Of a stretch of 64,000 bases of DNA, positions 9,787 through 51,133 are shown piece by piece. Position 1 is the first letter of the stretch. Each line of letters starts with the position of its first letter. Where the stretch lies: assembly GCA_031396695.1 (NCBI GenBank), contig JANNLG010000171.1:6053-70052 (forward strand), read 5' to 3'. The notes beneath the pieces were generated by a model. It was not told where the DNA came from. It saw only the letters and a list, made by a program, of their open reading frames with translations, and did not search any database. The position numbers and the translations under genes were made by a program. Origin of the DNA: Deltaproteobacteria bacterium (lineage in GTDB: Bacteria > Myxococcota_A > UBA9160 > SZUA-336).

Positions 9787-10616
9787 ATGTCGTAGGTCGG
9801 GTCGATCGAGCCCGACTCCGAATCCTTGTGCTTGACCTGGAGCTGCGGCGGCGTGATCTGCACGCGCGAGAAGGCCGGCACCGATTCGTGTAGCCAGACG
9901 TTGCCGCCGATCACCGAGCCCTCGCCGATCACGGTGTCGCCACCGAGGATGGTCGCGTTCGGGTAGATCGTGACGTCGTCCTCGATCGTCGGGTGGCGCT
10001 TCTTGCCGGAATCCAGCCTGCCCTGCTTGTTCGAGAACGCTCCGAGCGTGACGCCGTGGTACATCTTGACGCGGTTGCCGATCACCGCGGTCTCGCCGAT
10101 CACCACGCCCGTGCCGTGATCGATGAAGAAGTGGCAGCCGATCGACGCGCCGGGATGGATGTCCATGCCGGTCTTGCTCTTGGCGTGCTCGCTCATGATG
10201 CGCGCCGCGACCGGCGCGCCGAGTTCGTAGAGTACGTGCGCGATGCGGTAGGTCGAGACGGCGTACGCCGACGGATACGCGGCGATCACCTCCGCGTACG
10301 ACTTCGCCGCGGGATCTCCCTTGAAGGCGGCCTCGACGTCCATGCCCACGCAGTGCCGGATGTCCGGCAGATGCTCCAGGAACTTCGATGCGAGATCGGA
10401 GCCGATCAGCCCCGAGAGCAGGCCGTGCACGACTTCTAGATCGGAGTTGAGCCGCTCGTGCGGGGTCTGCTCCAGCACGATCGCGCGCAGATTCTCGAGC
10501 ACGTCGACCACCCGCCGGGTATCGGGGCAGGCCTGACGACGCGCAACGCTCACGGGATCGTTCTGATCGCGCTTGGCGATCAGATGATTCGCGATGGATT
10601 CGGTCAAGGTGGACAT
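9783..10616 (-). CDS. cysE: Serine O-acetyltransferase
   Basis: Hexapeptide-repeat C-terminus and SAT N-terminal domain. ATG at 10616 (MSTLTESIANHL). The stop shares the palindrome CTAG with the xthA stop. Confidence 0.85.
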   Translation of the reverse strand: MSTLTESIANHLIAKRDQNDPVSVARRQACPDTRRVVDVLENLRAIVLEQTPHERLNSDLEVVHGLLSGLIGSDLASKFLEHLPDIRHCVGMDVEAAFKGDPAAKSYAEVIAAYPSAYAVSTYRIAHVLYELGAPVAARIMSEHAKSKTGMDIHPGASIGCHFFIDHGTGVVIGETAVIGNRVKMYHGVTLGAFSNKQGRLDSGKKRHPTIEDDVTIYPNATILGGDTVIGEGSVIGGNVWLHESVPAFSRVQITPPQLQVKHKDSESGSIDPTYDI

Positions 10617-10728
10617 GTCTCGGACTCCCTTCACCTCTGACCTCCCGCCCCGGCGGAAGGTTACGCGTGGGCCCGGCATTTTCAAAGCGGGCCCGAAGCC
10701 CCATACTGGCCCGGCCTCTGGGGGGAGC

Positions 10729-11592
10729 GTGACCGAGTACAGCCACTCGCGCCTGTCGTCGTTCGAGAACTGCCCCCGCCAGTTCAAGTACCGCTACGTC
10801 GACCAGATCAAAGTCGACACCGAGGGCGTCGAGGCGTTCATGGGCAAGCGTGTCCACGAAATCCTCGAACGCCTCTACCACCACGTGGCGCGCAACGCGA
10901 AGCCGCCCAGCCTGGCGCAGGTGCTGGAGCGCTACAAGCAGGACTGGGAGCGGAGCTGGCACGCCAAGATCCAGATCGTGCGCAAGGAGAACTCGCCCGC
11001 GTATTACTCGGAGCGCGGCGCGCGCTGTCTGGAGAACTACTACCGCGGCCACTACCCGTTCACGAGCGGCGAAACGATCGCGCTCGAAGAGCGGCTGCGA
11101 CTCCGGCTCGACACCGATGGGCGTTACAAGATGCTCGGCATCGTCGACCGCATCGTGCGCACCGGCGACGGCGCGTTCGAGATCCACGACTTCAAGACCA
11201 GCGCGAACCTGCCGCAGCAGCGCAGCATCGACCGCGACCGCCAGCTCGCGCTGTACCAGATCGGGCTCGAGCAGACCTATCCCGACGTGAAGGAGGTCGA
11301 GCTGGTCTGGCACTACTTGATCCACAACAAGACGCTGCGCTCGCGGCGTTCGCCCGAGGCGCTGGTGGAACTGCGCCGGGCGACCATGGCGGTGATCGAC
11401 GCGATCGAGGCGGAGTCCGAGTTCCGCGCGCGGCCGGGGCCGCTGTGCCGCTGGTGCGACTACGCGAGCATCTGTCCCGAGGCGCCCGGGGCGGCGCGTT
11501 CGTCCGCTCCGGATCGGCCGGAGTTCGCCGCGCAGCTCGCGCCCGAGCCCGACGACGACTTCGGCCGCCAGCTCTCGCTGCTCGGGGATTGA
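10729..11592 (+). CDS. PD-(D/E)XK nuclease family protein (RecB/Cas4-like fold with C-terminal Cys cluster)
   Basis: N-terminal YSHSRLSSFENCPRQFKYRYVD motif. DxK core (EIHDFKTS). C-terminal CRWCDYASICP. GTG start at 10729, preceded by a G-rich stretch. Confidence 0.65.
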   Translation: MTEYSHSRLSSFENCPRQFKYRYVDQIKVDTEGVEAFMGKRVHEILERLYHHVARNAKPPSLAQVLERYKQDWERSWHAKIQIVRKENSPAYYSERGARCLENYYRGHYPFTSGETIALEERLRLRLDTDGRYKMLGIVDRIVRTGDGAFEIHDFKTSANLPQQRSIDRDRQLALYQIGLEQTYPDVKEVELVWHYLIHNKTLRSRRSPEALVELRRATMAVIDAIEAESEFRARPGPLCRWCDYASICPEAPGAARSSAPDRPEFAAQLAPEPDDDFGRQLSLLGD

Positions 11593-11605: not shown

Positions 11606-12043
11606 ATGAGAACCGCAATGACACGGCTCCTGTGTCGCTGCATGGGGATGTCGAGCCAGTGCGTCGCGGATCGGGTCCGCGAGCGCGGACTCGGCGACGT
11701 GGAGTCGATCGCCGCGAGCCTTGGCGCGGGTGGCTGCTGCGGAAGCTGTCGACCCGACCTCGAGGAGATCCTCGCCGACCTGCGCGGGGAGCCATTGCCC
11801 GAACCCGTGCGCCGCGCCAACCGCCTGCGCGGCGAGGCCGAGGCCTTCCGCCGCGTGGAAGCCGTGCTGTTCGGCAGCATCGTCGCGCGCCTGCCGCCGG
11901 GCACGGAGCTCGAGCTCGTTTCCGTATCCGGTTTGCGCGCGGAGCTGCACGTTGCGCACGGGGACTCACCGGAGCTGCGCACGCTGGTCGCCGAACGCCT
12001 GCAGAAGCTCGTCTGCGTCGAGCTCGAGGTGCAGTTCCGCTGA
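11606..12043 (+). CDS. BFD-like (2Fe-2S)-binding domain protein with NifU-like C-terminal region
   Basis: N-terminal CRCMG...C...CCGSC BFD-like cysteine pattern. The C-terminus resembles the Nfu/NifU C-terminal fold. Confidence 0.6.
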   Translation: MRTAMTRLLCRCMGMSSQCVADRVRERGLGDVESIAASLGAGGCCGSCRPDLEEILADLRGEPLPEPVRRANRLRGEAEAFRRVEAVLFGSIVARLPPGTELELVSVSGLRAELHVAHGDSPELRTLVAERLQKLVCVELEVQFR

Positions 12044-12060: not shown

Positions 12061-12861
12061 ATGCGAGTCGAACGCATTCCGACGCTGCGCGACAACTACA
12101 CGTACCTGGTGATCGATCCGGCTTCGAACGAGGCGGCGGTGATCGACGCGCCGGAGGCCGCGCCGGTGATCGCGCGCGTCGCGAAGCTCGGGGTGCGCGT
12201 GACGAAGGTGATGTCGACGCACCACCACCTCGATCACAGCGGCGCGAATCCCGAGCTCGCCGCGCACTTCCGCGCGCCCGTGATCGGACACGCCTCCGAC
12301 GCCGCCCGCATTCCGGGCTTCACCACCGGCGTGGAGGAAGGCGAGCGCGTGCGCGTCGGCGCGCTCGAGGCCGACGTGCTGTTCATCCCGGCGCATACGC
12401 GCGGGCACGTCGCCTACGTGTTTCCCGGCGCCGTGTTCTGCGGTGACACGCTCTTCGCCGGCGGCTGCGGGCGGCTCTTCGAGGGCACCCCGCAGATGAT
12501 GCACGAGGCGCTGAACGTGAAGCTCGCGAAGCTCGCCGACGCGACGCTCGTCTACTGCGGGCACGAGTACACGGAGGCCAACCTGCGTTTCGCGCTCACG
12601 CTCGAGCCGGGCAACTCGGCGCTCGCCGCGCGCATCACGACGGTGAAGGCGCGCCGCGCGCACGCCGCGAGCGATTGGCACGACGCGACGGAGGCGGAGA
12701 TGACCGTGCCCTCGACGCTCGCCGACGAGCGCGCGACCAATCCGTTCATGCGTACGTCGGCGGCGGAGCTCGTCGCGAGCGTGCGCGCGCAGCTGCCCGG
12801 TACGTCGTCCGATCCCGTCAGCGTGCTCGGCGCGGTGCGCGCGCTGAAGGACAAGTTCTGA
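12061..12861 (+). CDS. gloB: Hydroxyacylglutathione hydrolase (glyoxalase II)
   Basis: Metallo-beta-lactamase motif THHHLDHSG and glyoxalase II C-terminal domain. 266 aa. Confidence 0.85.
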   Translation: MRVERIPTLRDNYTYLVIDPASNEAAVIDAPEAAPVIARVAKLGVRVTKVMSTHHHLDHSGANPELAAHFRAPVIGHASDAARIPGFTTGVEEGERVRVGALEADVLFIPAHTRGHVAYVFPGAVFCGDTLFAGGCGRLFEGTPQMMHEALNVKLAKLADATLVYCGHEYTEANLRFALTLEPGNSALAARITTVKARRAHAASDWHDATEAEMTVPSTLADERATNPFMRTSAAELVASVRAQLPGTSSDPVSVLGAVRALKDKF

Positions 12862-13508
12862 GCGAGCGCTGCTCATTCCTCGGGCTGTTCGCGTTGCTCT
12901 TGCTCTTGCCGATCGGTGCGTCCGCGGATCTCGGCCATCGACCGGAAGATCGGGTCACGCTCACACACGTCGACAACCAGGTCATCGCCGTCACCGCGTC
13001 GGGCTTCGCGGCGGTGCTCTCGAAGCTCGAGCTCGGCGAGTCGGTGATCGCGCTGCGCAGTCAGGGCAACGTCGGCGTCGCGGTCACGACGCGGCGCCTG
13101 CTCGCGATCCAGACCCGCGCCGCCAATTTCGTCGAGCTGCGCTACCGCGTTTCCGAGTCCGCGCCGAGCGAGCACGACCTGCAGGTGCGCGACGGCCTGA
13201 TCGTCGCCGCGTTCCCGGCGCGGATCCTCGCCTTCTCGCCGCAGATCGCCGCCTGGCAGGAGTTCGGGCTCGGGCCAGGCGAGAAGCCGATCGAAGTGAT
13301 CGCCGAGCAGAACGTCGCGGTGGTCGTCACGCCGCGCCGCGCGGTCGCGTTCTCGCCGCTCTCCGCCGGCTTCGTGCCTTATCCGCTGACGCCCGGCGAG
13401 GATCCGGAACGCAGCACGCTCGGCGACGACTCGATCACGCTGATCCTTCCGCACCGGGTGCTGATCTTCCGCGCGGGCGACTCGGCCTGGTCGAGCGTCA
13501 ATCGCTGA
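12858..13508 (+). CDS. Secreted repeat protein with five ~40-aa repeats. Start uncertain: CTG 12858 or TTG 12894.
   Basis: The sense frame has an N-terminal signal-peptide-like segment (FLGLFALLLLLPIGASA|DLG) and five repeats of the form hhVhhTxxRhhAF. The competing minus-strand ORF 12873..13712 is D/E/R-rich junk. Confidence 0.45.
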   Translation: MSERCSFLGLFALLLLLPIGASADLGHRPEDRVTLTHVDNQVIAVTASGFAAVLSKLELGESVIALRSQGNVGVAVTTRRLLAIQTRAANFVELRYRVSESAPSEHDLQVRDGLIVAAFPARILAFSPQIAAWQEFGLGPGEKPIEVIAEQNVAVVVTPRRAVAFSPLSAGFVPYPLTPGEDPERSTLGDDSITLILPHRVLIFRAGDSAWSSVNR

Positions 13509-13652
13509 GATTTCCGAGCTGTCGAGGCGTTGACGATAACCGTCACCGGACTGACGGATCTGGTCCACATCGGGCCCTGCAGCGAGGCCGCGACAGTGTC
13601 GCCAGGCTCGAATATCCGCGGACTTCGTCGCGTCTGGTGCGTATGGCATACG

Positions 13653-13669
13653 TTGGCACGCCTGATGCA
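13653..13669 (+). promoter_or_regulatory. Sigma-54 (RpoN) -24/-12 promoter
   Basis: TTGGCACG-cctg-ATGCA matches YTGGCACGr-N3-TTGCW. GG and GC are spaced 11 nt apart. The site lies 37 nt upstream of the ATG at 13706. Confidence 0.5.
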
Positions 13670-13705
13670 AATCCTCAGGCTCGAAACAGAGGGGAGCATT
13701 TCGGC

Positions 13706-13930
13706 ATGGCACTGGTCGCGCACACGCTCAGGAATTTCGAGTCCGCGGAGCAGATCGCGGAGCCCGGCCACCCCGAGACGCTCACCCTGCTCGACCTTGT
13801 TTCTGCAATCGCGGACGAGGCCGAGACCGACGAAGAGGTCGTCGCCACGATCCAGCATCTGATCGAGACTGGAAAGGTCACCCTGGTCGGGAACTTCCGC
13901 TCGAACGACGTCGGCCGACGCAAGGACTGA
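13706..13930 (+). CDS. Small acidic hypothetical protein (74 aa)
   Basis: ATG at 13706. Shine-Dalgarno (SD) sequence GAGGGGAG lies 9 nt upstream. The ORF sits in a lower-GC island. Sequence MALVAHTLRNFESAEQIAEPG...ETGKVTLVGNF. Confidence 0.45.
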   Translation: MALVAHTLRNFESAEQIAEPGHPETLTLLDLVSAIADEAETDEEVVATIQHLIETGKVTLVGNFRSNDVGRRKD

Positions 13931-13943
13931 GCGCCGCTCAGAC

Positions 13944-15086
13944 CTACAGAGCCTTCGCCGCCTCTTCGAGCGCGACCACCACGTGATAGACGCTGGTCGC
14001 GTTCTGCGCGTCCGAGATCACGCGCCCGTCGCGCGCGAGCTGCTCGAACCAGCCGTGCGTCTTGGGATCGACGTGACGAGCGAAGCAGTAGCGCAAGCCG
14101 GCTTCCAGCTCGCGCCGCGCGATCGCGTCGCCCGTCGCCCGCGCGCGCGCGGCCAGCGCCTTGACGCGCTCGGTCTGCGGCCACAGTCGCTTGGTCACGG
14201 CGAGCGTCCGGCCCTCGGCGTCGATCTGGTCGAAGACTCCGCCGTCGGTGTCGACGCCCAAGCGGCGGCCGAACTCGAAGAGCCGATCGGACAGCGCGCG
14301 CGCCGCGTCGCTCGGCGCGAGCGACTGCAACCGATCGAGCAGCCAGACCCACTCGAAGTGATGCCCGGGCTCGACGATGCGCCCGGCATCGCCCGCGAGC
14401 GGCCGCCAGTGGGAGTCGAAGTGTTCGCCGAGCGCGCCCGTGCGCGCGTCGAGCCAGCGCGCGCCGAGCAGCTCCACGAGCGAGCGCGCGTCGCGCAGCG
14501 CGCCGCTGTCGGGCGCGACCTCGGCCAGCACCAGTAGCGCCTCGACCAAGTGCATGTGCGGGTTCTGTCGCCGCGGCCCCGCGAGCGGCTGCCAGTCCTC
14601 GCTCGCGGTCTCGAAGAAGCCACCCGAAACGGGATCGCGCAGCCGTTCGCGCAGGAGCTCGAGCGTCGCGCTCGCCAGCCGCAGGGACTCCGGCTCGCCG
14701 CTTGCCCGGTGGTGCTCGGCGAGCGCGAAGATCGCGAACGCATGCCCGTACAGATCCTTGCGTCGGTCGAGCGGCGCGCCCGCCTCGTCGGTGGTGGTGA
14801 ACCAACCGCCGAAGCGCGGGTCCCAGAAACGCGCGTGCAGGAACTCGAGTCCGTGCGCCACCGCGTTTCGCGCCCACGCGCCGGCGCCAAGTTCCGACGC
14901 GCGCGTGAACGCGAAGATCTGGCGCGCGTGGACCAGGAGTCGCTTGTGACCGTCGGGCAGCGGCGCCAGATCGGGTCCGAGCCGGTTCCAGTAGCCGCCG
15001 CGGTTGCGATCGAGACCGTGCCGTTCCCAGAGCGGCAGCAGCTCGTCGACCAGATGCGCGCGCAGCGTCAGGCGCGAGTGCTGCAT
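13944..15086 (-). CDS. N-acylglucosamine 2-epimerase (AGE) superfamily protein
   Basis: ATG at 15086 (MQHSRLTLRAHLVDELLPLWERHG). (alpha/alpha)6-barrel AGE-family conserved motifs. 381 aa. Confidence 0.75.
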   Translation of the reverse strand: MQHSRLTLRAHLVDELLPLWERHGLDRNRGGYWNRLGPDLAPLPDGHKRLLVHARQIFAFTRASELGAGAWARNAVAHGLEFLHARFWDPRFGGWFTTTDEAGAPLDRRKDLYGHAFAIFALAEHHRASGEPESLRLASATLELLRERLRDPVSGGFFETASEDWQPLAGPRRQNPHMHLVEALLVLAEVAPDSGALRDARSLVELLGARWLDARTGALGEHFDSHWRPLAGDAGRIVEPGHHFEWVWLLDRLQSLAPSDAARALSDRLFEFGRRLGVDTDGGVFDQIDAEGRTLAVTKRLWPQTERVKALAARARATGDAIARRELEAGLRYCFARHVDPKTHGWFEQLARDGRVISDAQNATSVYHVVVALEEAAKAL

Positions 15087-15093
15087 CGCTCGC

Positions 15094-15435
15094 TCACGAC
15101 AGCGCGTCGGTGTAGGCCTCCGCGTTCCAACCGACCAGCAGCGTGTCGCCGACCACCAGCGCCGGCGCGCGCAGATTTCCGGTCGGCCCGAGGACGGCCT
15201 CGACGATCTCGTCGGGCGCTTTTCCGCCGGGCGTGAAGCTGCGCAGCGCTTTGCCTTTCGCCACGACAACGCGCCTCGCGGCCTTCACCAGCTTCGCGGC
15301 GTCGGCCTTGCCGAGCTTCTTGCTCGCAGAAACCGTCGCGACCGGCTCGATCTTCCTGGCGTCCAGAAACTTGGACGCTCGTTCGCAACTGGTTCAACCG
15401 TTGCGGTGGTAGTACCAGTCGATGCGCTTGGCCAT
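15094..15435 (-). CDS. Spx/ArsC-family thioredoxin-fold protein with in-frame TGA at codon 14. Candidate selenoprotein with a U-T-S-C redox motif.
   Basis: ATG at 15435 with SD GGAGG 9 nt upstream. In-frame TGA at 15394..15396. Readthrough gives MAKRIDWYYHRNG-U-TSCERASKFLDARKIEP..., which aligns with the Spx N-terminus ...SCTSCRKARAWLEEHDI. The C-terminus (LRAPALVVGDTLLVGWNAEAY) is typical of the ArsC/Spx family. Total length 113 aa. Confidence 0.55.
15359..15378 (-). other. Putative bacterial SECIS hairpin (7-bp stem, 6-nt loop AGUUUC)
   Basis: The mRNA sequence GCGUCCA-AGUUUC-UGGACGC begins 16 nt after the UGA. The loop G is about +24 nt from the UGA. Confidence 0.35.
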
Positions 15436-15475: not shown

Positions 15476-15697
15476 TCAGGCGGGGACGGACTCCCCGCCC
15501 GCGAGACAGACGCTCGGGGCGCGCTGGCGGCGCTCGCCGTGGGTCTCGGCGAGCAGATCGTGCACCGTCTCGCGGCAGCCGCCGCAGCTCGAGCCCGCGC
15601 CGCACATCTCGGCGACCTGACAGGGCGTGCGAGCGCCCGCACGCGCGGCGTGCTGGATTTCGCGGTCGGTCACGGCGTGGCAGCTGCACACGATCAT
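15476..15697 (-). CDS. bfd: Bacterioferritin-associated ferredoxin
   Basis: MIVCSCHAVTDREIQ...CGAGSSCGGC 2Fe-2S motif. 73 aa. ATG at 15697. Confidence 0.8.
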   Translation of the reverse strand: MIVCSCHAVTDREIQHAARAGARTPCQVAEMCGAGSSCGGCRETVHDLLAETHGERRQRAPSVCLAGGESVPA

Positions 15698-15718
15698 GAC
15701 CGACAGCCTACCTCGGAT

Positions 15719-15737
15719 GATAATGACAATCAATTAC
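15719..15737. promoter_or_regulatory. Fur box
   Basis: GATAATGACAATCAATTAC matches the consensus GATAATGATAATCATTATC at 15 of 19 positions. It lies in an AT-rich gap between the divergent bfd and lemA genes. Confidence 0.55.
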
Positions 15738-18242: not shown

Positions 18243-20585
18243 CTATCGGGGGGCCGAACGCCTGTCAACGCGAATGCCGAGCAAGCGCCGCATCAGCGCG
18301 CCGAGATCGGGGTCGGAGAACATGCCGAGTGTCTCGTAGACTCTCGCGAGGCGATCGCGCACGTCGCTCGAGCGCGGCGCGAGCGCGATCTCGCGCGCGC
18401 AGTCCGTCATCGCCGAGGCGTCGGTCCGGCGCACGACCTGGCGCAGCGCAAGCACCGAGAACGGCGCCATCGAGAGCTCCTCGATTCCCATGCCGATCAA
18501 GAGCGGCGCCACGACCGGATTGCCGCCGAGTTCCCCGCACAGCGAGCACGGGATGCCGGCCGCGCGCGCCGCATCGACGCTGCGCTGGATCTCGGACAGC
18601 ACACCGGGATGGAACGGATCGTAGATCCCGGCCACGCGCTCGTTCTCGCGGTCGGTGGCGAGCGTGTACTGCATCAGATCGTTGGTGCCGATCGAGAAGA
18701 AGTCGGAGCGCGCGGCCAGGTGCTGCGCGATCGCGACCGCGGCGGGCGTCTCGATCATGACACCGAGCGGTGGCATGGCCGCGCCGAGCTCCGCGCAGAC
18801 CGCCAGCAGGTGCTCGCGCGCCGCCTCGAGCTCGTCCACCGACGCGATCATCGGCAGCATGATGCGCAGGTTGCCGGTGCCGTTCGCGCGCACGATCGCG
18901 CGCAGCTGTGCGCGAAACAGCTCGGGCCGGTCGAGCAGGATGCGGATCGCGCGCCAGCCGAGCTGCGGGTTCGCCTCTTCGATCGACTCGCCGGACAGCG
19001 CCTTGTCGCCGCCCAGATCGAAGCAGCGGATCACCACCGGGTCGGGGGCGATCTGCGTCGCCACGCGCAGGTACGCGCGCTGCTGCTCGTCCTCTTCGGG
19101 CACGCCGCGCGAGCCGAGCGCGAACACCTCCGTGCGCAACAAGCCGATGCCTTCCGCGCCGTAGCGCTTCACCAGATCGACGTCGGAGAGTCCGCCGACG
19201 TTGGCCGAGAGGCGGATCTTGCGGCCGTCGCGCGTCTCGCTCGGCAGGCCGCGCAGCTCGTCGAGCCGTCCGCGCGTCTTGCGATAGCGCCCGGAGATCA
19301 CCGTGTACTCGGCTCGCTGTGCGCGCGTGGGCGCCGCGATCACCACACCCTCGAGCCCGTCGACGATCACCTCGTCTTCGGGTCGCAGCCGCGCCGCGAT
19401 GCGCGCCACGCCGGAGACGGCCGGGATCTCGAGCGAGCGCGCGAAGATCGCGGAGTGACTGGTCGGCCCGCCGTGCTCCGTCACCAGCCCCGCGATCTTC
19501 TCGGTTTCGAGCAGCACGAACTCGCTCGGCGCGATCGCCGACGCGACCACGATCACGCCGTTGCGCAGCGGCGGATTGTGCAGTCGCACGCCGAGCAGCT
19601 CGCCGACCGCGCGCTGCAACACGTCCTCGACGTCGGCGGCGCGCTCGCGCACGGTCGCGTCGGGCGTCGCGGCGAAAATCGCCGCGTAGCCCTGCATGGT
19701 CTCCACCAGCGCGCGCGCGCCGTTGCCGTGCAAATCGACGCCGCGGCGCAGCTTGGCGCGAAAGCCCTGGTCTTCGAGGATCATGATGTGGGTGGTGAAG
19801 ACGTCTGCGAGCTCCTCGCCGAAGCGCTCGCCGACGCTCCCGCGCAGGTCGTTCAGCTGGCGCACGGTTTCGCGCAACGCGCGCTGCACGGCGCGGAACT
19901 CCGCCGCAGGCGTGCGCGCCGGCTCGTAGTCGATCGCACCCAGATCGAGCCGCGGCGCGATCAGGTGCACACGTCCGCGCGCGATGCCCGGTGAATTGCC
20001 GTTGCCGCGCAGCACCGTGCCGCGCGCGAGCGGCTCGGGCGCGCTGGCGGCGAAGCGTCTACCCGGAGCGCTCTCGCGCAGCGCGCGATCGAGCAGCCGC
20101 GCGTTGAGCACGATTGAGCCCACCTGCGCCGCGATCATCTCGAGCAGCTCGAGCTGCTCGGGCGGGAACACGCGCACGCGCGCGGTGCGCGCGGTCAGCA
20201 CACCGACCGGCTCGCCGCGCACCAGCAGCGGCACCGCCACCAGCGAGCGGAAGCGCTGCTCGCCCGAGAACGACACGGTCTGCACGCGTGTGTCGAGTCG
20301 AACGTCCGGCACCGCGATCGTCTCGCGCTGCTGCAGCGCGCGGCCCGCGATGCCCTGGCCGAGCCGGATGCGCACGCGCCCGACGGCCTGCGGGTTCAGG
20401 CCGCGCGTCGCGCGCAGCACCAACGTCTCGCCGTCCTCTTCGAGCACGTAGATCGAGCACGCCGAGGCGTGCATCCAGCGCGCGACCAGACGCACGACGT
20501 TTTCGAGCGTCTCCGCGAGGTCGTGACTGCGCGTGAGCAGCCGGCCGACGTCGCGCAGAAAGTTCGCGGATGCGCCTCGAGGCAT
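18243..20585 (-). CDS. ptsP: Phosphoenolpyruvate-protein phosphotransferase PtsP (GAF domain plus Enzyme I, nitrogen PTS)
   Basis: 780 aa. N-terminal GAF domain. EI motifs GGPTSHSAIFARSLEIPAV and the PEP-utilizing C-terminus (IGTNDLMQYTLA). Confidence 0.85.
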   Translation of the reverse strand: MPRGASANFLRDVGRLLTRSHDLAETLENVVRLVARWMHASACSIYVLEEDGETLVLRATRGLNPQAVGRVRIRLGQGIAGRALQQRETIAVPDVRLDTRVQTVSFSGEQRFRSLVAVPLLVRGEPVGVLTARTARVRVFPPEQLELLEMIAAQVGSIVLNARLLDRALRESAPGRRFAASAPEPLARGTVLRGNGNSPGIARGRVHLIAPRLDLGAIDYEPARTPAAEFRAVQRALRETVRQLNDLRGSVGERFGEELADVFTTHIMILEDQGFRAKLRRGVDLHGNGARALVETMQGYAAIFAATPDATVRERAADVEDVLQRAVGELLGVRLHNPPLRNGVIVVASAIAPSEFVLLETEKIAGLVTEHGGPTSHSAIFARSLEIPAVSGVARIAARLRPEDEVIVDGLEGVVIAAPTRAQRAEYTVISGRYRKTRGRLDELRGLPSETRDGRKIRLSANVGGLSDVDLVKRYGAEGIGLLRTEVFALGSRGVPEEDEQQRAYLRVATQIAPDPVVIRCFDLGGDKALSGESIEEANPQLGWRAIRILLDRPELFRAQLRAIVRANGTGNLRIMLPMIASVDELEAAREHLLAVCAELGAAMPPLGVMIETPAAVAIAQHLAARSDFFSIGTNDLMQYTLATDRENERVAGIYDPFHPGVLSEIQRSVDAARAAGIPCSLCGELGGNPVVAPLLIGMGIEELSMAPFSVLALRQVVRRTDASAMTDCAREIALAPRSSDVRDRLARVYETLGMFSDPDLGALMRRLLGIRVDRRSAPR

Positions 20586-20616
20586 GGCTTTCAGTCTAGC
20601 CGCCCCTTCGCTGGCA

Positions 20617-20660
20617 CAAAAAAGAGAGACACGGCCCGTTCGCGGGTGCCGTGTCTCTCT
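20617..20660 (-). terminator. Rho-independent terminator downstream of the XRE gene
   Basis: On the minus strand there is a GC-rich hairpin (GAGAGACACGGC...GCCGTGTCTCTC) followed by UUUUUUGUG. Confidence 0.6.
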
Positions 20661-20681
20661 TCTCGAGCTTGAAGCTCCGGC

Positions 20682-36137: not shown

Positions 36138-37219
36138 ATGAAAGAAACCCTCGAGCGCATCGACGACATCCTCGGATCGCTCCGCGTGGGGATCCTCGCG
36201 ATCGATGCGGACGGCCGGGTCGAGCTCGAGAACCCCGAGGCGAGCCGGATCCTGGGCCAGTCGATCGTGGCCGCGGTCGGCCGCCCGCTCCACCAGGTGC
36301 TCGGCCGCCAGCACCCCGCGAGCGCCCTGCTCGAGACCGCGCTGCGCGAAGGCCGGGCGGTTTCGGAGCACGGCTGCCTAGTGCCCGATCGGATGGGTGG
36401 CCGGCCGCTGGTGGTCGATCTGTCCGCGGCCCCGATCGGACGCGGCAGCGAGGTGCACGGCGCCGTGCTCTCGCTCAGCGACCGCACGATCGGCGTCGAG
36501 CTCGAGGACCTGCTCGGCCAGCGCGCGCGCTCCGAGCTGTTCGCGCAGCTCGCGGCCGGCATCGCGCACGAGCTGCGCAACCCGCTGTCCGGCATTCGCG
36601 GCGCGGCCGACCTGCTGCTGGGCAAGCTCCCCGAGTCGAGCCTCGCGCGCTACCCCGAGCTGATCCGCGCGGAAGTCGATCGCATGCGTCGGCTGCTCGA
36701 CGACCTGGCCGAGCTCACACGCGGCGGCGACCTGCGCCCGCGCCGCGCCAACCTGCACCGCGTGATCGACGACGTGGTCGAGCTGCACAGCCACTCCGAG
36801 ACGTGGCAGGGCATCAAGATCGAACGCAGCTACGACCCGAGCATTCCCGAGTTCGAGTTCGACCCCGACCGCACCACGCAAGTGCTGTTGAACCTGATGC
36901 GCAACGCGGTGCAAGCGATGGCGGGCAGCGGCACGCTCACGCTGCGCACGCGCATCGAGTCGGCGTACCACTTCGAACACGTCGGGCCCGAGCGCGCACG
37001 GCTCGTGCGCATCGACATCCAGGACACCGGCCCCGGCATTCCCGACGAGGACCTGCCGCTCCTGTTCACGCCGTTCTTCACGCGCCGCAGCTCCGGCACC
37101 GGGCTCGGTCTGGCCGTCGCTCAAGCCTGGACCGTGAAGCAGGGCGGGCGGATCCTGGTGCGCAGCCGCGCCGGAGAAGGAACACGCATGCGTGTAGAGC
37201 TGCCCCTCCGGAAGCCGAC

Positions 37220-37223
<4 letters not shown>
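36138..37223 (+). CDS. PAS-domain sensor histidine kinase (NtrB-like, cytoplasmic)
   Basis: H-box AHELRNPL. N, G1 and G2 boxes (LLNLMRNAVQA, DTGPGI, GTGLGL). Confidence 0.8.
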
Positions 37224-38685
<1,462 letters not shown>

Positions 38686-38689
<4 letters not shown>

Positions 38690-48709: not shown

Positions 48710-49813
48710 TCAGGCCGCCGCGGGCGTCTCCGGTAGCGGACCGACGTAGCGCGAGCCGGGCCGGATGATGCGCGAGCTCTGGCGCTGCTCGTCGATGTGC
48801 GCGAGCCAGCCCGCCACGCGCGCGACCGCGAAGGTCGGCGAGAACAGCTCCTGCGGCAGACCGATCGCGTCGAGCAGCACGGCCGTGTAGAACTCGACGT
48901 TCGCGGCCATGCGGCGCTCGGGGCGGCGCTCGCCGAGCGACGCGACGGCGACGCGCTCGACCGCGCGCGCGAGATCGAGCCGATCGCTGCGCAGGCCCGT
49001 CTCGCGCAGGCGCTCGACGGCGCGCTCGAGCACTGCCGCCCGCGGATCGCGCACGCGGTACACGCGGTGGCCCATGCCCATGATGCGCCGGCCCGAAGCC
49101 AGCTCGCCGGTGATCCAGCTCGAGGCGTTCTCGGGCGTGCCGATCGCGTCGAGCATCGCGAGCACCGGCCCGGGCGCGCCGCCGTGGCGCGGCCCCTTCA
49201 GCGCGCCGAGTGCAGCCACCACGGCCGACACCGTGTCGGAGTCGGTCGAAGCGACCACGCGCGCGGTGAACGTGGATGCGTTCATGCCGTGATCGGCGGC
49301 GGTGACCAGGTACGCGTCGAGCGCGCGGCTGCGCGCCGGATCGCTGCCGTGCGCGCTCGCCATGCGCAGGTAGTCGGCGGCGTGACCGAGCGCGGGATCG
49401 GGTGCGATCGGCGCCGAGCCGCGCTGTTTGCGCGCCCACGCCGCCGCGAAGACCGCGACCGAAGCCGTGAGCTCGGCACGCAGCTCGCACTCCGGAATCT
49501 CGCTCGCGCGCAGCTGCGCGAGCGCCCCGCGCACGGCCTCCATGCCGTCGGGCGCATCGAGCGCGCGGCCGAGCGAGCGCAGGCGCGCGAACGCGCGAAC
49601 GCGTGCTCGGCCCAACTCCTCACGCACGTCCTCGTGCGCAATCGGACCGGGCAGCTCGCCGCTCCAGAGCAGCGCGCAGGCCGCCTCGAAATCGGCTCGC
49701 TGCGCGAGCTGCTCCACGTCGTGCCCGCGCACCACCAGGCGGCCGCGCTCGCCGTCGACGTCGGAAAGGCAGGTCTCCGCCACCACCACGCCCTCGAGTC
49801 CATCCATCTGCAT
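48710..49813 (-). CDS. Citrate synthase family protein (archaeal-type small citrate synthase)
   Basis: ATG at 49813 (MQMDGLEG). Catalytic motifs ADHGMNASTFTARVVAST and GMGHRVYRVRDPR. Confidence 0.8.
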   Translation of the reverse strand: MQMDGLEGVVVAETCLSDVDGERGRLVVRGHDVEQLAQRADFEAACALLWSGELPGPIAHEDVREELGRARVRAFARLRSLGRALDAPDGMEAVRGALAQLRASEIPECELRAELTASVAVFAAAWARKQRGSAPIAPDPALGHAADYLRMASAHGSDPARSRALDAYLVTAADHGMNASTFTARVVASTDSDTVSAVVAALGALKGPRHGGAPGPVLAMLDAIGTPENASSWITGELASGRRIMGMGHRVYRVRDPRAAVLERAVERLRETGLRSDRLDLARAVERVAVASLGERRPERRMAANVEFYTAVLLDAIGLPQELFSPTFAVARVAGWLAHIDEQRQSSRIIRPGSRYVGPLPETPAAA

Positions 49814-49855
49814 CGCACTTCTCCTTGGACCTCTACCTTGCCGCTGATCCATTAC

Positions 49856-49881
49856 TTGATCAACGTTGATCGATCGATCAA
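49856..49881. promoter_or_regulatory. Palindromic operator-like element
   Basis: TTGATCAA-CG-TTGATCGATCGATCAA contains an 8-bp palindrome plus a 16-bp perfect palindrome. It lies in an AT-rich island between the two divergent citrate-synthase-family genes. Confidence 0.45.
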
Positions 49882-49891
49882 GATACGAGCC

Positions 49892-51133
49892 GTGAAGACG
49901 CGAACCGACGCAGCGCTCTGCGCGCGCGAGGCGGCCGAATTCCTGGGCGTGAAGCTCGCGACGCTCTACGCCTACGCGAGCCGCGGCCGCTTGAAGAGTG
50001 TGTCCGGGACGCGCGGCCGCGCGCGGCGCTACGCGCGCGCCGATCTCGAGGCACTGCGCGCGCGCAGCGCCGGACCCGCCGCGGGCGCGCTGCGCTTCGG
50101 CGAGCCGGTGCTCGAGACGCGCATCACCGACATGACTCCGCTCGGGCCGGTCTACCGCGACCGGCTCGCGAGCGAGCTCGCGAGCGCACGCGCTCCCTTC
50201 CCGTCGGTCGCGGAGCTGCTTTGGACCGGCGCCCTGCCCGCGCGCGCGCCGAGCTGGCCCGCCGGCGCGACGATCTGGCCGGCGCGCGAGCTCGCGAAGC
50301 TCGTGCCGCGCGGCAGCCCACCGCTCGGCGCGCTCGCGATCGCGCTGCCGGTGCTCGCGGCGAACGATGCCTCGCGCTTCGACGCGCGACCCGAGGCCGT
50401 GCTCGCGCGCGCGCGCGGCTTGCTGCCGCAGCTCGCGGCCTCGTACGCGCTCGCGCTCGATCCACGCCGGCTCGCACCCGCGCTCGAGGCCGGCGACCCG
50501 GCGCGCGCGCTCGCGATCGCGCTCGGCGCGCCGACCACGAAGCCCGCGCTCGAGCTCCTGAACGTCGCACTCGTGCTGCTCGCCGATCACGAGCTGAACT
50601 CGTCCACGTTCGCGGCGCGCGTGGCGGCCTCGACCGGCGCCGACCTGTACGCGTGTCTCGGCGCCGCGGTCGCCGCGCTCAGCGGACCGCTGCACGGCGG
50701 CGCGAGCGAGCAGGTCGAGATCCTCGCTCGCGAAGCTGCGAACGCCGCCGGCGCGGCCAGCGCCGTGCGCGATCGCATGCGCCGCGGCGAGCGCATTCCC
50801 GGATTCGGTCACTCGCTCTATCCGGATGGCGATCCGCGCGTGCCGCCGCTGCTCGAGGCCGCAAGACGGCTTGCCCCACGCGCGCCGCGCGTGAAGACGA
50901 TCGCGGCGATCCTCCACGCGATGGACGAGGCCGGCCGGCCCAAGCCCAACGTCGACGTGGCGCTCGCCTGCGCCTGCGCTGCGCTCGATCTGCCCCAAGG
51001 CCAGGGCCCGGCGATCTTCGCGATCGGCCGCGCGGCGGGCTGGGTTGCCCACATCCTGGAGCAGTACGAGGCCGGCTTCGTGCTGCGACCGCGCGCCCGT
51101 TGGGCGGGCCCCGCTGGTATGCTGCGCGCGTGA
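49892..51133 (+). CDS. Citrate synthase-family protein with N-terminal excisionase/MerR-type helix-turn-helix domain
   Basis: GTG at 49892. HTH segment (LCAREAAEFLGVKLATLYAYASRGRL). CS-like body (LADHELNSSTFAARVAAST, GFGHSLYPDGDPR). Confidence 0.65.
   Translation: MKTRTDAALCAREAAEFLGVKLATLYAYASRGRLKSVSGTRGRARRYARADLEALRARSAGPAAGALRFGEPVLETRITDMTPLGPVYRDRLASELASARAPFPSVAELLWTGALPARAPSWPAGATIWPARELAKLVPRGSPPLGALAIALPVLAANDASRFDARPEAVLARARGLLPQLAASYALALDPRRLAPALEAGDPARALAIALGAPTTKPALELLNVALVLLADHELNSSTFAARVAASTGADLYACLGAAVAALSGPLHGGASEQVEILAREAANAAGAASAVRDRMRRGERIPGFGHSLYPDGDPRVPPLLEAARRLAPRAPRVKTIAAILHAMDEAGRPKPNVDVALACACAALDLPQGQGPAIFAIGRAAGWVAHILEQYEAGFVLRPRARWAGPAGMLRA

Follow-up and report, generated by a model that had tools for sequence, protein, structure and literature searches.

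A predicted sigma-54 promoter with a putative phased enhancer is conserved upstream of a small acidic protein gene in Myxococcota-like bacteria

Sigma-54 (RpoN) promoters with NtrC-type activator sites, such as glnAp2 and the pspA promoter, share a recognizable architecture: GG and GC doublets at canonical spacing in a TGGCACG-N4-TTGCW-like sequence, two dyads on the same face of the helix 100-150 bp upstream, an A/T-containing block between the dyads and the promoter, and no sigma-70 promoter. Whole-turn phasing of the sites and a fixed distance from enhancer to promoter are requirements of looping activation by NtrC-type oligomers. Here we describe a locus that resembles these promoters in each of those respects, in a 64,000-nucleotide stretch of contig JANNLG010000171.1 from a Deltaproteobacteria bacterium (hereafter the window, 64 kb in full). 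A predicted sigma-54 promoter at 13653..13669 precedes a gene for a 74-amino-acid acidic protein. Unlike the canonical cases, its -12 element reads ATGCT throughout the family, it has no adjacent activator gene, and its target is a single orphan small gene. A sigma-54 promoter with upstream activator sites is a textbook element and not new in itself; this module is an unusually clean and comparatively validated one, in which promoter, two phased sites and target are kept as a unit across at least two deep clades. Taken as a whole, the interpretation developed below, a self-contained sigma-54 module of promoter, enhancer and 74-amino-acid gene with a proposed activator mechanism and a guessed link to topoisomerase VI (Topo VI), appears to us very likely.

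The promoter and the gene comprise the following elements.

13653..13669, plus strand: predicted sigma-54 promoter, TTGGCACG-cctg-ATGCA (in full TTGGCACGCCTGATGCA), with GG at 13655-56 as the -24 element and GC at 13667-68 as the -12 element
13680..13681, plus strand: predicted transcription start, placed by the canonical spacing from the -12 GC to +1
13689..13696, plus strand: Shine-Dalgarno sequence GAGGGGAG; GAGGGGAGC is kept before the ATG in relatives
13706..13930, plus strand: gene for the 74-amino-acid acidic protein, ATG at 13706, TGA at 13928-30, core PETLTLLDLV-AIADEAETDEEVVATIQHLIETGKVTLVGNF

The GG and GC doublets stand at canonical sigma-54 spacing, and the segment TGGCACGCCTGATGCA (13654..13669) matches TGGCACG-N4-TTGCW with exact spacing and one mismatch, an A for the first T of TTGC. 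The promoter lies correctly oriented inside a 197-bp gap (13509..13705), 52 nt 5' of the ATG and with the Shine-Dalgarno sequence in between, and the predicted start would leave a leader of about 25 nt. An initial annotation, made from the letters of the window, had placed the promoter, the ATG at 13706 and the end of the open reading frame (ORF) at 13930 correctly, and we place its Shine-Dalgarno sequence at 13689..13696. The low-GC island that it described over the gap does correspond to a dip in GC content, though a modest one (0.59-0.64 across 13500..13750 versus 0.70-0.77 in the flanking genes). A scan for sigma-70 promoters and terminators found no sigma-70-like promoter in 13300..14200, and an Rfam scan of 13400..14000 gave no match at the gathering score and one sub-threshold microRNA match.

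When up to one mismatch to TGGCACG-N4-TTGCW is allowed, the window contains a single match, the sequence at 13653..13669. The chance expectation for such a match is 0.40 per window, at least one was present in 32 of 100 shuffles, and near-consensus motifs with two mismatches occur in the window at background frequency. The motif taken alone is not significant. Because a single motif of this quality is expected 0.40 times by chance, the case for the promoter rests on conservation in related sequences.

We fetched 45 homologous loci from genome and metagenome collections and a further three by exact protein look-up. The pattern TTGGCA[CT]G-N4-[AGT]TGC stands before the gene in every locus with enough upstream sequence (42 of 42 distinct homologous loci). 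Beyond these 42, two more distant loci also have the motif and one has a one-base variant of it. TGGCAC stands anywhere from 35 to 95 nt before the ATG in the homologous loci, which argues that the motif is conserved independently of the coding and ribosome-binding-site sequences. In a logo built from the 42 distinct loci, the positions left free by the search expression (T-1, C+5, G+6, A+11, T+15 and T+16) still carry 1.2-1.8 bits, and the spacer and both flanks carry about 0-0.5 bits and are unconstrained. Pattern searching of both strands of 841 kb (loci plus window) returned 61 matches, 54 of them no more than 130 nt upstream of a small gene; three of the remaining seven are reverse-strand reads of the same site and four lie elsewhere. 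By this comparison, purifying selection has acted on the promoter motif more than on its flanks across orthologous loci. The identification of TTGGCACG-cctg-ATGCA as a sigma-54 -24/-12 promoter is strongly backed by the alignments, and phylogenetic footprinting, together with the codon-position pattern described below, bears out the initial annotation's proposal that such a promoter drives the small acidic gene.

The motif extends to a more distant clade of loci, identified below by its Topo VI genes. Nine of the ten loci retrieved from that clade carry TGGCAC[GA]-N4-NTGCT 43-60 nt 5' of the start (for L055, of a corrected start), and L056 has a one-base variant, AGGCACG-N4-TTGCT. Moreover, in ten of 28 over-long ORF calls of distant members the promoter itself is read in frame, 26-50 residues ahead of the core, and appears as W-H-x-S-C or L-A-R-x-[ML]-L. 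Start codons of these small genes are often called too far 5' (L055:1354-1602; P0093, P0103, P0113, P0131, P0164, P0212 and P0243), with N-termini that are translated promoter, and in L055 the annotated ATG falls within the -12 element. A second good sigma-54 motif, TGGCACGGAAGATGC, occurs at L057:1855-1869, about 100 nt 5' of an ORF; a ribonucleotide-reductase-like gene and RtcB come next, and sigma-54 dependence is classical for RtcB operons.

Upstream of the promoter, the window holds a series of elements that we compared among loci by aligning the upstream regions on the promoter without gaps.

13520..13525, plus strand: possible extra upstream half-site, TGTCGA here and TGACGR in most relatives, about 11 bp before site 1; seen by eye, degenerate in the window and a weak call
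13531..13546, plus strand: putative enhancer (upstream activating sequence) site 1, dyad TGACG-ATAAC-CGTCA(C)
13552..13568, plus strand: putative enhancer site 2, TGACGG-ATCTG-GTCCAC, 21 bp downstream of site 1
13540..13557, no strand: inverted repeat CCGTCA-N6-TGACGG, in which the right arm of site 1 is joined to the left arm of site 2
13591..13601, no strand: near-palindrome CGACAGTGTCG, a sub-clade-specific element
13608..13625, plus strand: A/T-containing element TCGAATATCCGCGGACTT between enhancer and promoter, a candidate site for DNA bending (IHF/HU type) or an auxiliary function

A block of the form GTTGACGA-N4-CGTCAC-N4/5-CTGACGG is in register in essentially all loci of the window's own clade, just after the stop codon of the upstream gene, and site 1 is the sole perfect TGACG-N5-CGTCA in the window. 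Measured from the T of TGGCAC, the GTCAC arm of site 1 lies at -109..-112 in window-clade loci and the GTCCAC/GGCCAC arm of site 2 at -88..-91; the distance from enhancer to promoter varies by no more than 3 bp in this clade while leader length varies by 60 nt. In the window itself the dyads precede TGGCAC by about 100-125 bp, and their centres are about 145 and 124 bp 5' of the predicted start. The 21-bp spacing, two helical turns, and the fixed distance to the promoter fit looping-dependent activation by an NtrC-type oligomer. That 13531..13546 and 13552..13568 make up a putative bipartite, phased enhancer, with the two dyads as the conserved units, is well supported by these alignments. Most loci of the distant clade have two G[TA]CCGAA-N4-G[TA]CAC repeats, 21 bp apart and about 100-123 bp upstream, which have GAC...GTCAC ends in common with the window's sites. 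From the sequences compared, sigma-54 control and the same enhancer type hold in both clades sampled. We know of no binding site of NtrC, NifA, PspF, NorR or GlrR that the TGACG/GTCAC-type half-site matches.

The inverted repeat that had been put forward as an enhancer is real and lies within the conserved enhancer, but it straddles the two dyads and is not itself the unit. The near-palindrome suggested as a further activator site is likewise present, but is conserved only in the closest sub-clade: CGACAGTGTCG is kept in the closest relatives (L001, L005, L013-L015, L021 and others) and is absent from loci of the L003, L006 and L023 type. A GAATWTYCGCG-like block occupies the register of the A/T-containing element in window-clade loci, and A/T-rich tracts are found at the equivalent position in the distant clade. 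The block at 13608..13625 may be a site for a bending protein; its match to the IHF consensus is poor.

The downstream gene is itself constrained as coding sequence. Across 32 loci, the variable columns at codon positions 1, 2 and 3 number 27, 14 and 43 of 45 core codons, a pattern that argues for a translated sequence under purifying selection, and the conclusion that 13706..13930 is a real coding gene is strongly backed by this comparison. A 97-amino-acid ORF from GTG 13637 was rejected, as homologues align from ATG 13706 and the promoter would fall inside the gene, and so were long minus-strand ORFs over the region, which are the usual artefacts of high-GC sequence.

Together these patterns bear on a reading in which the motif is a chance or non-promoter element, or in which the transcript acts as an RNA and the ORF is untranslated. 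The expectation of 0.4 matches with at most one mismatch per 64 kb speaks for chance. It does not account for a motif that is invariant at 42 of 42 loci between unconstrained flanks, for the concentration of 54 of 61 matches at this one position, or for a distance to the ATG that varies while the distance to the enhancer is fixed. The codon pattern and the conserved Shine-Dalgarno sequence, with no Rfam family matched, argue for translation over an RNA-only role. We regard this reading as extremely unlikely.

Two further features touch the transcript. Window-clade relatives with long leaders (46-69 nt) have a hairpin just before the Shine-Dalgarno sequence (L003:5950-6000, L007, L023, L025, L031, L039 and L041), the stems of which look compensatory (CGCTCA/TGAGCG, CGCTCG/CGAGCG, CGCTCC/GGAGCG and CTCTCGC/GCGAGAA); the window's own 25-nt leader is without one. 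The other is found at the 3' end of the gene.

13927..13941, no strand: short palindrome CTGAGC-GCC-GCTCAG that includes the stop codon, at the junction of the small gene with the convergent gene

This palindrome has no T-run, was not called as a terminator and is not conserved in relatives.

The 74-amino-acid product has an isoelectric point of 4.6, with 14 acidic and six basic residues. The ORF had been described as unannotated, yet an identical 74-amino-acid protein (P0001) is already present in NCBI-derived collections. It is conserved in related genomes. A protein search recovered 59 close homologues of 68-76 amino acids and 58-100% identity, from metagenomes or metagenome-assembled genomes (MAGs) labelled Myxococcota, Deltaproteobacteria or 'bacterium', and the alignment of the window clade shows a variable N-terminus followed by an invariant core, P-ETLTLLDLV ... 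EVVAT ... G-V-L-GNF. Searching 1.84 billion representative proteins with a profile gave 921 clusters at 50% identity (E <= 0.001), almost all of 60-105 amino acids, and a second, word-indexed search gave 2,544 clusters at 90% identity. The family-wide core reads TLL[DE]LV-AV-x6-[DE]-EVVATV-x2-L-x2-SGRV-L-G-F. The distant set, which supplied the ten loci introduced above, is homologous to the window clade at 99.6% hhalign probability, and its members are about 35-45% identical to the window protein. Cluster name look-ups returned only 'hypothetical protein' from MAGs. The family is very large and uncharacterised, and comes only from uncultured Myxococcota-like bacteria.

Two AlphaFold models, from alignments of 40 and 89 sequences, have a predicted local distance difference test score of 69 and 65, which is modest confidence. 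Both have a low-confidence N-terminus and helices at residues 28-38 and 42-55, and the model from the deeper alignment adds short strands at 24-26 and 58-60. The variable N-terminus is probably disordered, and the conserved core of about 45 residues is predicted to fold as strand-helix-helix-strand. The initial annotation found no recognisable domain in the protein, and our profile scans agree: Pfam, NCBIfam, PADLOC and PHROGs gave no match for the window protein and none above threshold in 55 diverse members scanned, and the best hit of a PDB sequence-profile search was an armadillo repeat at E = 0.07, which is meaningless. The family also gave no confident match to a known fold.

It had also been suggested that the product is a stress or anti-sigma-like factor. 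A small, acidic product under an activator-gated promoter would suit such a role, and the only trace of it that we found is a FlgM match in one of the 55 members, at E = 0.09 and well below threshold. No other anti-sigma family was matched, and no sigma factor gene is a conserved neighbour in the loci examined. We consider this identity very unlikely.

A promoter of this type calls attention to the activators encoded nearby, and the window holds one candidate operon.

36138..37223, plus strand: sensor kinase, PAS-HisKA-HATPase by Pfam, overlapping the start of the activator gene
37220..38689, plus strand: NtrC-type activator, REC, Sigma54_activat, AAA lid and HTH_8, with GAFTGA at residue 219

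An NtrC-type activator with GAFTGA implies that the organism uses sigma-54. The gene for the factor itself, rpoN, was not seen among the window ORFs scanned; no search aimed at it was made. The initial annotation had pointed out the activator at 37220..38689, and its domains (REC, Sigma54_activat and HTH_8, with GAFTGA) are confirmed, with no link to the small-gene promoter found. It is possible that this two-component pair is the cognate regulator of the promoter: the activator is complete, its sensor kinase lies directly upstream, and the scanned window ORFs yielded no other activator. It nevertheless lies 23.5 kb from the promoter and has no enhancer-like site near its own operon. A search for further copies of TGACG-N5-CGTCA across the window, including the surroundings of this operon, found only one-mismatch matches at chance level. 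Myxococcota typically encode dozens of such activators, which makes for a low prior for any one of them. We judge the pairing quite improbable.

A PtsP-like enzyme I of the nitrogen phosphotransferase system (GAF plus phosphoenolpyruvate (PEP)-utilising domains) is encoded on the minus strand at 18243..20678, 4.3 kb from the small gene, and PEP-utiliser fragments are also found near the small gene in L003; any link to sigma-54 physiology is speculative.

The genomic neighbourhood of the small gene differs between the two clades, and it is the distant one that offers the only lead on function. There, the small gene stands immediately upstream of top6B, which encodes subunit B of Topo VI, in nine of ten loci (L049-L053 and L055-L058). 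Wherever the contig reaches, top6A follows top6B, usually with glucose-1-phosphate thymidylyltransferase-like (NTP_transferase, RfbA-like) and deoxythymidine diphosphate-sugar isomerase (RfbC-like) genes after it; upstream gene content varies among the loci. An intermediate locus, L040, combines the window-type enhancer and the window-type upstream gene with a top6B downstream. The bacterial Topo VI genes, on high-GC contigs from MAGs or metagenomes, are located as follows.

L049:6275-9298, Topo VI genes
L050:6296-9331, Topo VI genes
L051:6317-9324, Topo VI genes
L053:6307-9335, Topo VI genes
L055:1769-4740, Topo VI genes
L056:6474-9624, Topo VI genes
L057:6316-8351, Topo VI genes
L058:5240-7458, Topo VI genes
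L040:790-1161, Topo VI genes

In every case the small-protein gene and its sigma-54 promoter stand before them, the promoter of L056 being the one-base variant. In the spacer between the small gene and top6B (L050:6217-6295, L051:6220-6316, L052:6205-6281, L053:6217-6306 and L055:1603-1768) a TTGCGC/TTGACC ... CATCGT/GATTGT-like pair can be seen by eye. The pair could be a separate, sigma-70-type promoter for top6B, and the small gene would then be monocistronic there too, as it is in the window, where it stands alone. Literature searches on Topo VI in bacteria and on its connection with sigma-54 listed no relevant paper; one mention of Topo VI concerned IHF-type histones in Omnitrophica.

Because the gene sits directly upstream of top6B-top6A in other lineages, it is tempting to speculate that the small protein acts as a protein-binding modulator connected with Topo VI or with DNA topology, and that it is made only on an activator signal. 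We offer this as a tentative suggestion of rather low probability. A more specific version, about as doubtful or slightly more so, has the family as dedicated, signal-gated partners of Topo VI that would inhibit it, activate it or form a third subunit, and whose synthesis would require a specific enhancer-binding protein to fire the sigma-54 promoter. If this were true, an environmental or developmental signal would switch DNA decatenation or relaxation by Topo VI, and in the window clade the gene would have become separated from top6BA with the same control kept.

Alternatively, the small protein might feed back on its own enhancer-binding protein, either as an anti-activator or as a co-activator, much as in the PspA-PspF and HrpV-HrpS pairs, with the Topo VI adjacency secondary. 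Promoter, enhancer and small gene do travel as one unit through very different neighbourhoods, the enhancer half-sites are recognisably related between clades, which fits a tight and ancient partnership of activator and gene, and small acidic proteins are typical protein-binding modulators. Such a role would, however, leave the position before top6B in 10 of 11 distant-clade and intermediate loci unexplained; the family resembles neither PspA nor HrpV nor any other known anti-activator in sequence or fold, and no locus examined has an adjacent activator gene. We therefore think it unlikely, and retain the Topo VI-linked modulator as our working guess.

For the sigma-54 module itself we propose the following course of events. 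RNA polymerase with sigma-54 would wait in a closed complex on TTGGCACG-N4-ATGCA (13653..13669). A dedicated enhancer-binding ATPase would bind as dimers at the two dyads (13531..13546 and 13552..13568), 21 bp and two helical turns apart, oligomerise, and contact the polymerase by DNA looping, a bend that the A/T block at 13608..13625 may aid. ATP hydrolysis would then open the promoter, with transcription from near 13680. The short leader and its strong ribosome-binding site would allow the 74-amino-acid acidic protein to be made. The analyses show the motif and its conservation, the architecture of the enhancer, the coding status of the gene, the size of the family and the Topo VI adjacency; in this scheme we infer the binding and looping of the activator, the start site and the activity of the protein.

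Several observations weigh against this reading. The -12 element of the window promoter is ATGC and not TTGC; the same holds across the family, and since it is found across the whole family the change is probably tolerated. In none of the loci examined is an activator gene encoded within about 6 kb of the small gene. No terminator was found in 13300..14200, and only 13 nt separate the stop of the small gene from the stop of the convergent gene. As to function, the roughly 35 loci of the window clade are without Topo VI adjacency, no Topo VI gene is present in the 64-kb window, and comparison of the family with Top6A and Top6B by hhalign gave no similarity.

Neighbours in the window clade suggest no function for the small protein. 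Their order is hydroxyacylglutathione hydrolase, conserved hypothetical, small gene, convergent epimerase-family gene, BFD-like ferredoxin, LemA and TPM-domain proteins. The conserved gene 5' of the small gene (12675..13508, plus strand) has no Pfam match and, by eye, an N-terminal signal peptide; its stop directly precedes the enhancer, and it adjoins the small gene throughout the window clade and in L040. With the TTG listed as its start it overlaps the preceding gene; the true start probably lies further downstream. The downstream neighbour is a convergent gene of the N-acylglucosamine (GlcNAc) 2-epimerase family (13944..15269, minus strand). Genes with a BFD-like [2Fe-2S] ferredoxin domain flank the locus at 11606..12043 (plus strand) and 15476..15733 (minus strand), an arrangement kept in L001 and L003. 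DNA-processing genes also occur near the small gene, namely a PD-(D/E)XK (Cas4/AddB-like) nuclease and an Exo_endo_phos nuclease, and in L003 also an AlkA/HhH-GPD glycosylase fusion (window 10594..11592, plus strand; L001:1305-2072; L003:632-2296); this may be coincidence. Farther away in the window, an ORF at 48737..51130 (plus strand) pairs an excisionase-type HTH_17 (residues 397-442) with a citrate synthase domain (455-786); its first 400 or so residues have no match, and the start may be over-called in high-GC sequence.

The module offers several points of entry. Its conserved enhancer gives a binding motif for finding the cognate activator and the rest of the regulon, and the locus provides a first point of access to a family that no database describes and that numbers at least 2,500 clusters at 90% identity. 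To our knowledge the role and regulation of bacterial Topo VI are essentially unstudied, and the recurrent place of the family upstream of these genes is a concrete, testable lead.

In summary, the comparisons with described small regulators differ in what they lend to this protein. For FlgM-type anti-sigma factors, no profile match rises above threshold and no sigma factor gene is a neighbour in any locus. PspA with PspF, and HrpV/HrpG with HrpS, bear no sequence or structural similarity to the family, and 74 amino acids is far smaller than PspA; the likeness is in a small protein made strictly under the control of an enhancer-binding protein, as is predicted here, and feedback on that activator is plausible. 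The regulators of type II topoisomerases, among them RHL1 and BIN4 of plant Topo VI and YacG, GyrI and MfpA/Qnr of gyrase, have no homology to the family, and the link to them is one of gene neighbourhood only, absent in the window's clade. In other lineages, however, the gene lies directly upstream of top6B-top6A, and binding to the enzyme or mimicry of DNA would be conceivable for a small acidic protein.

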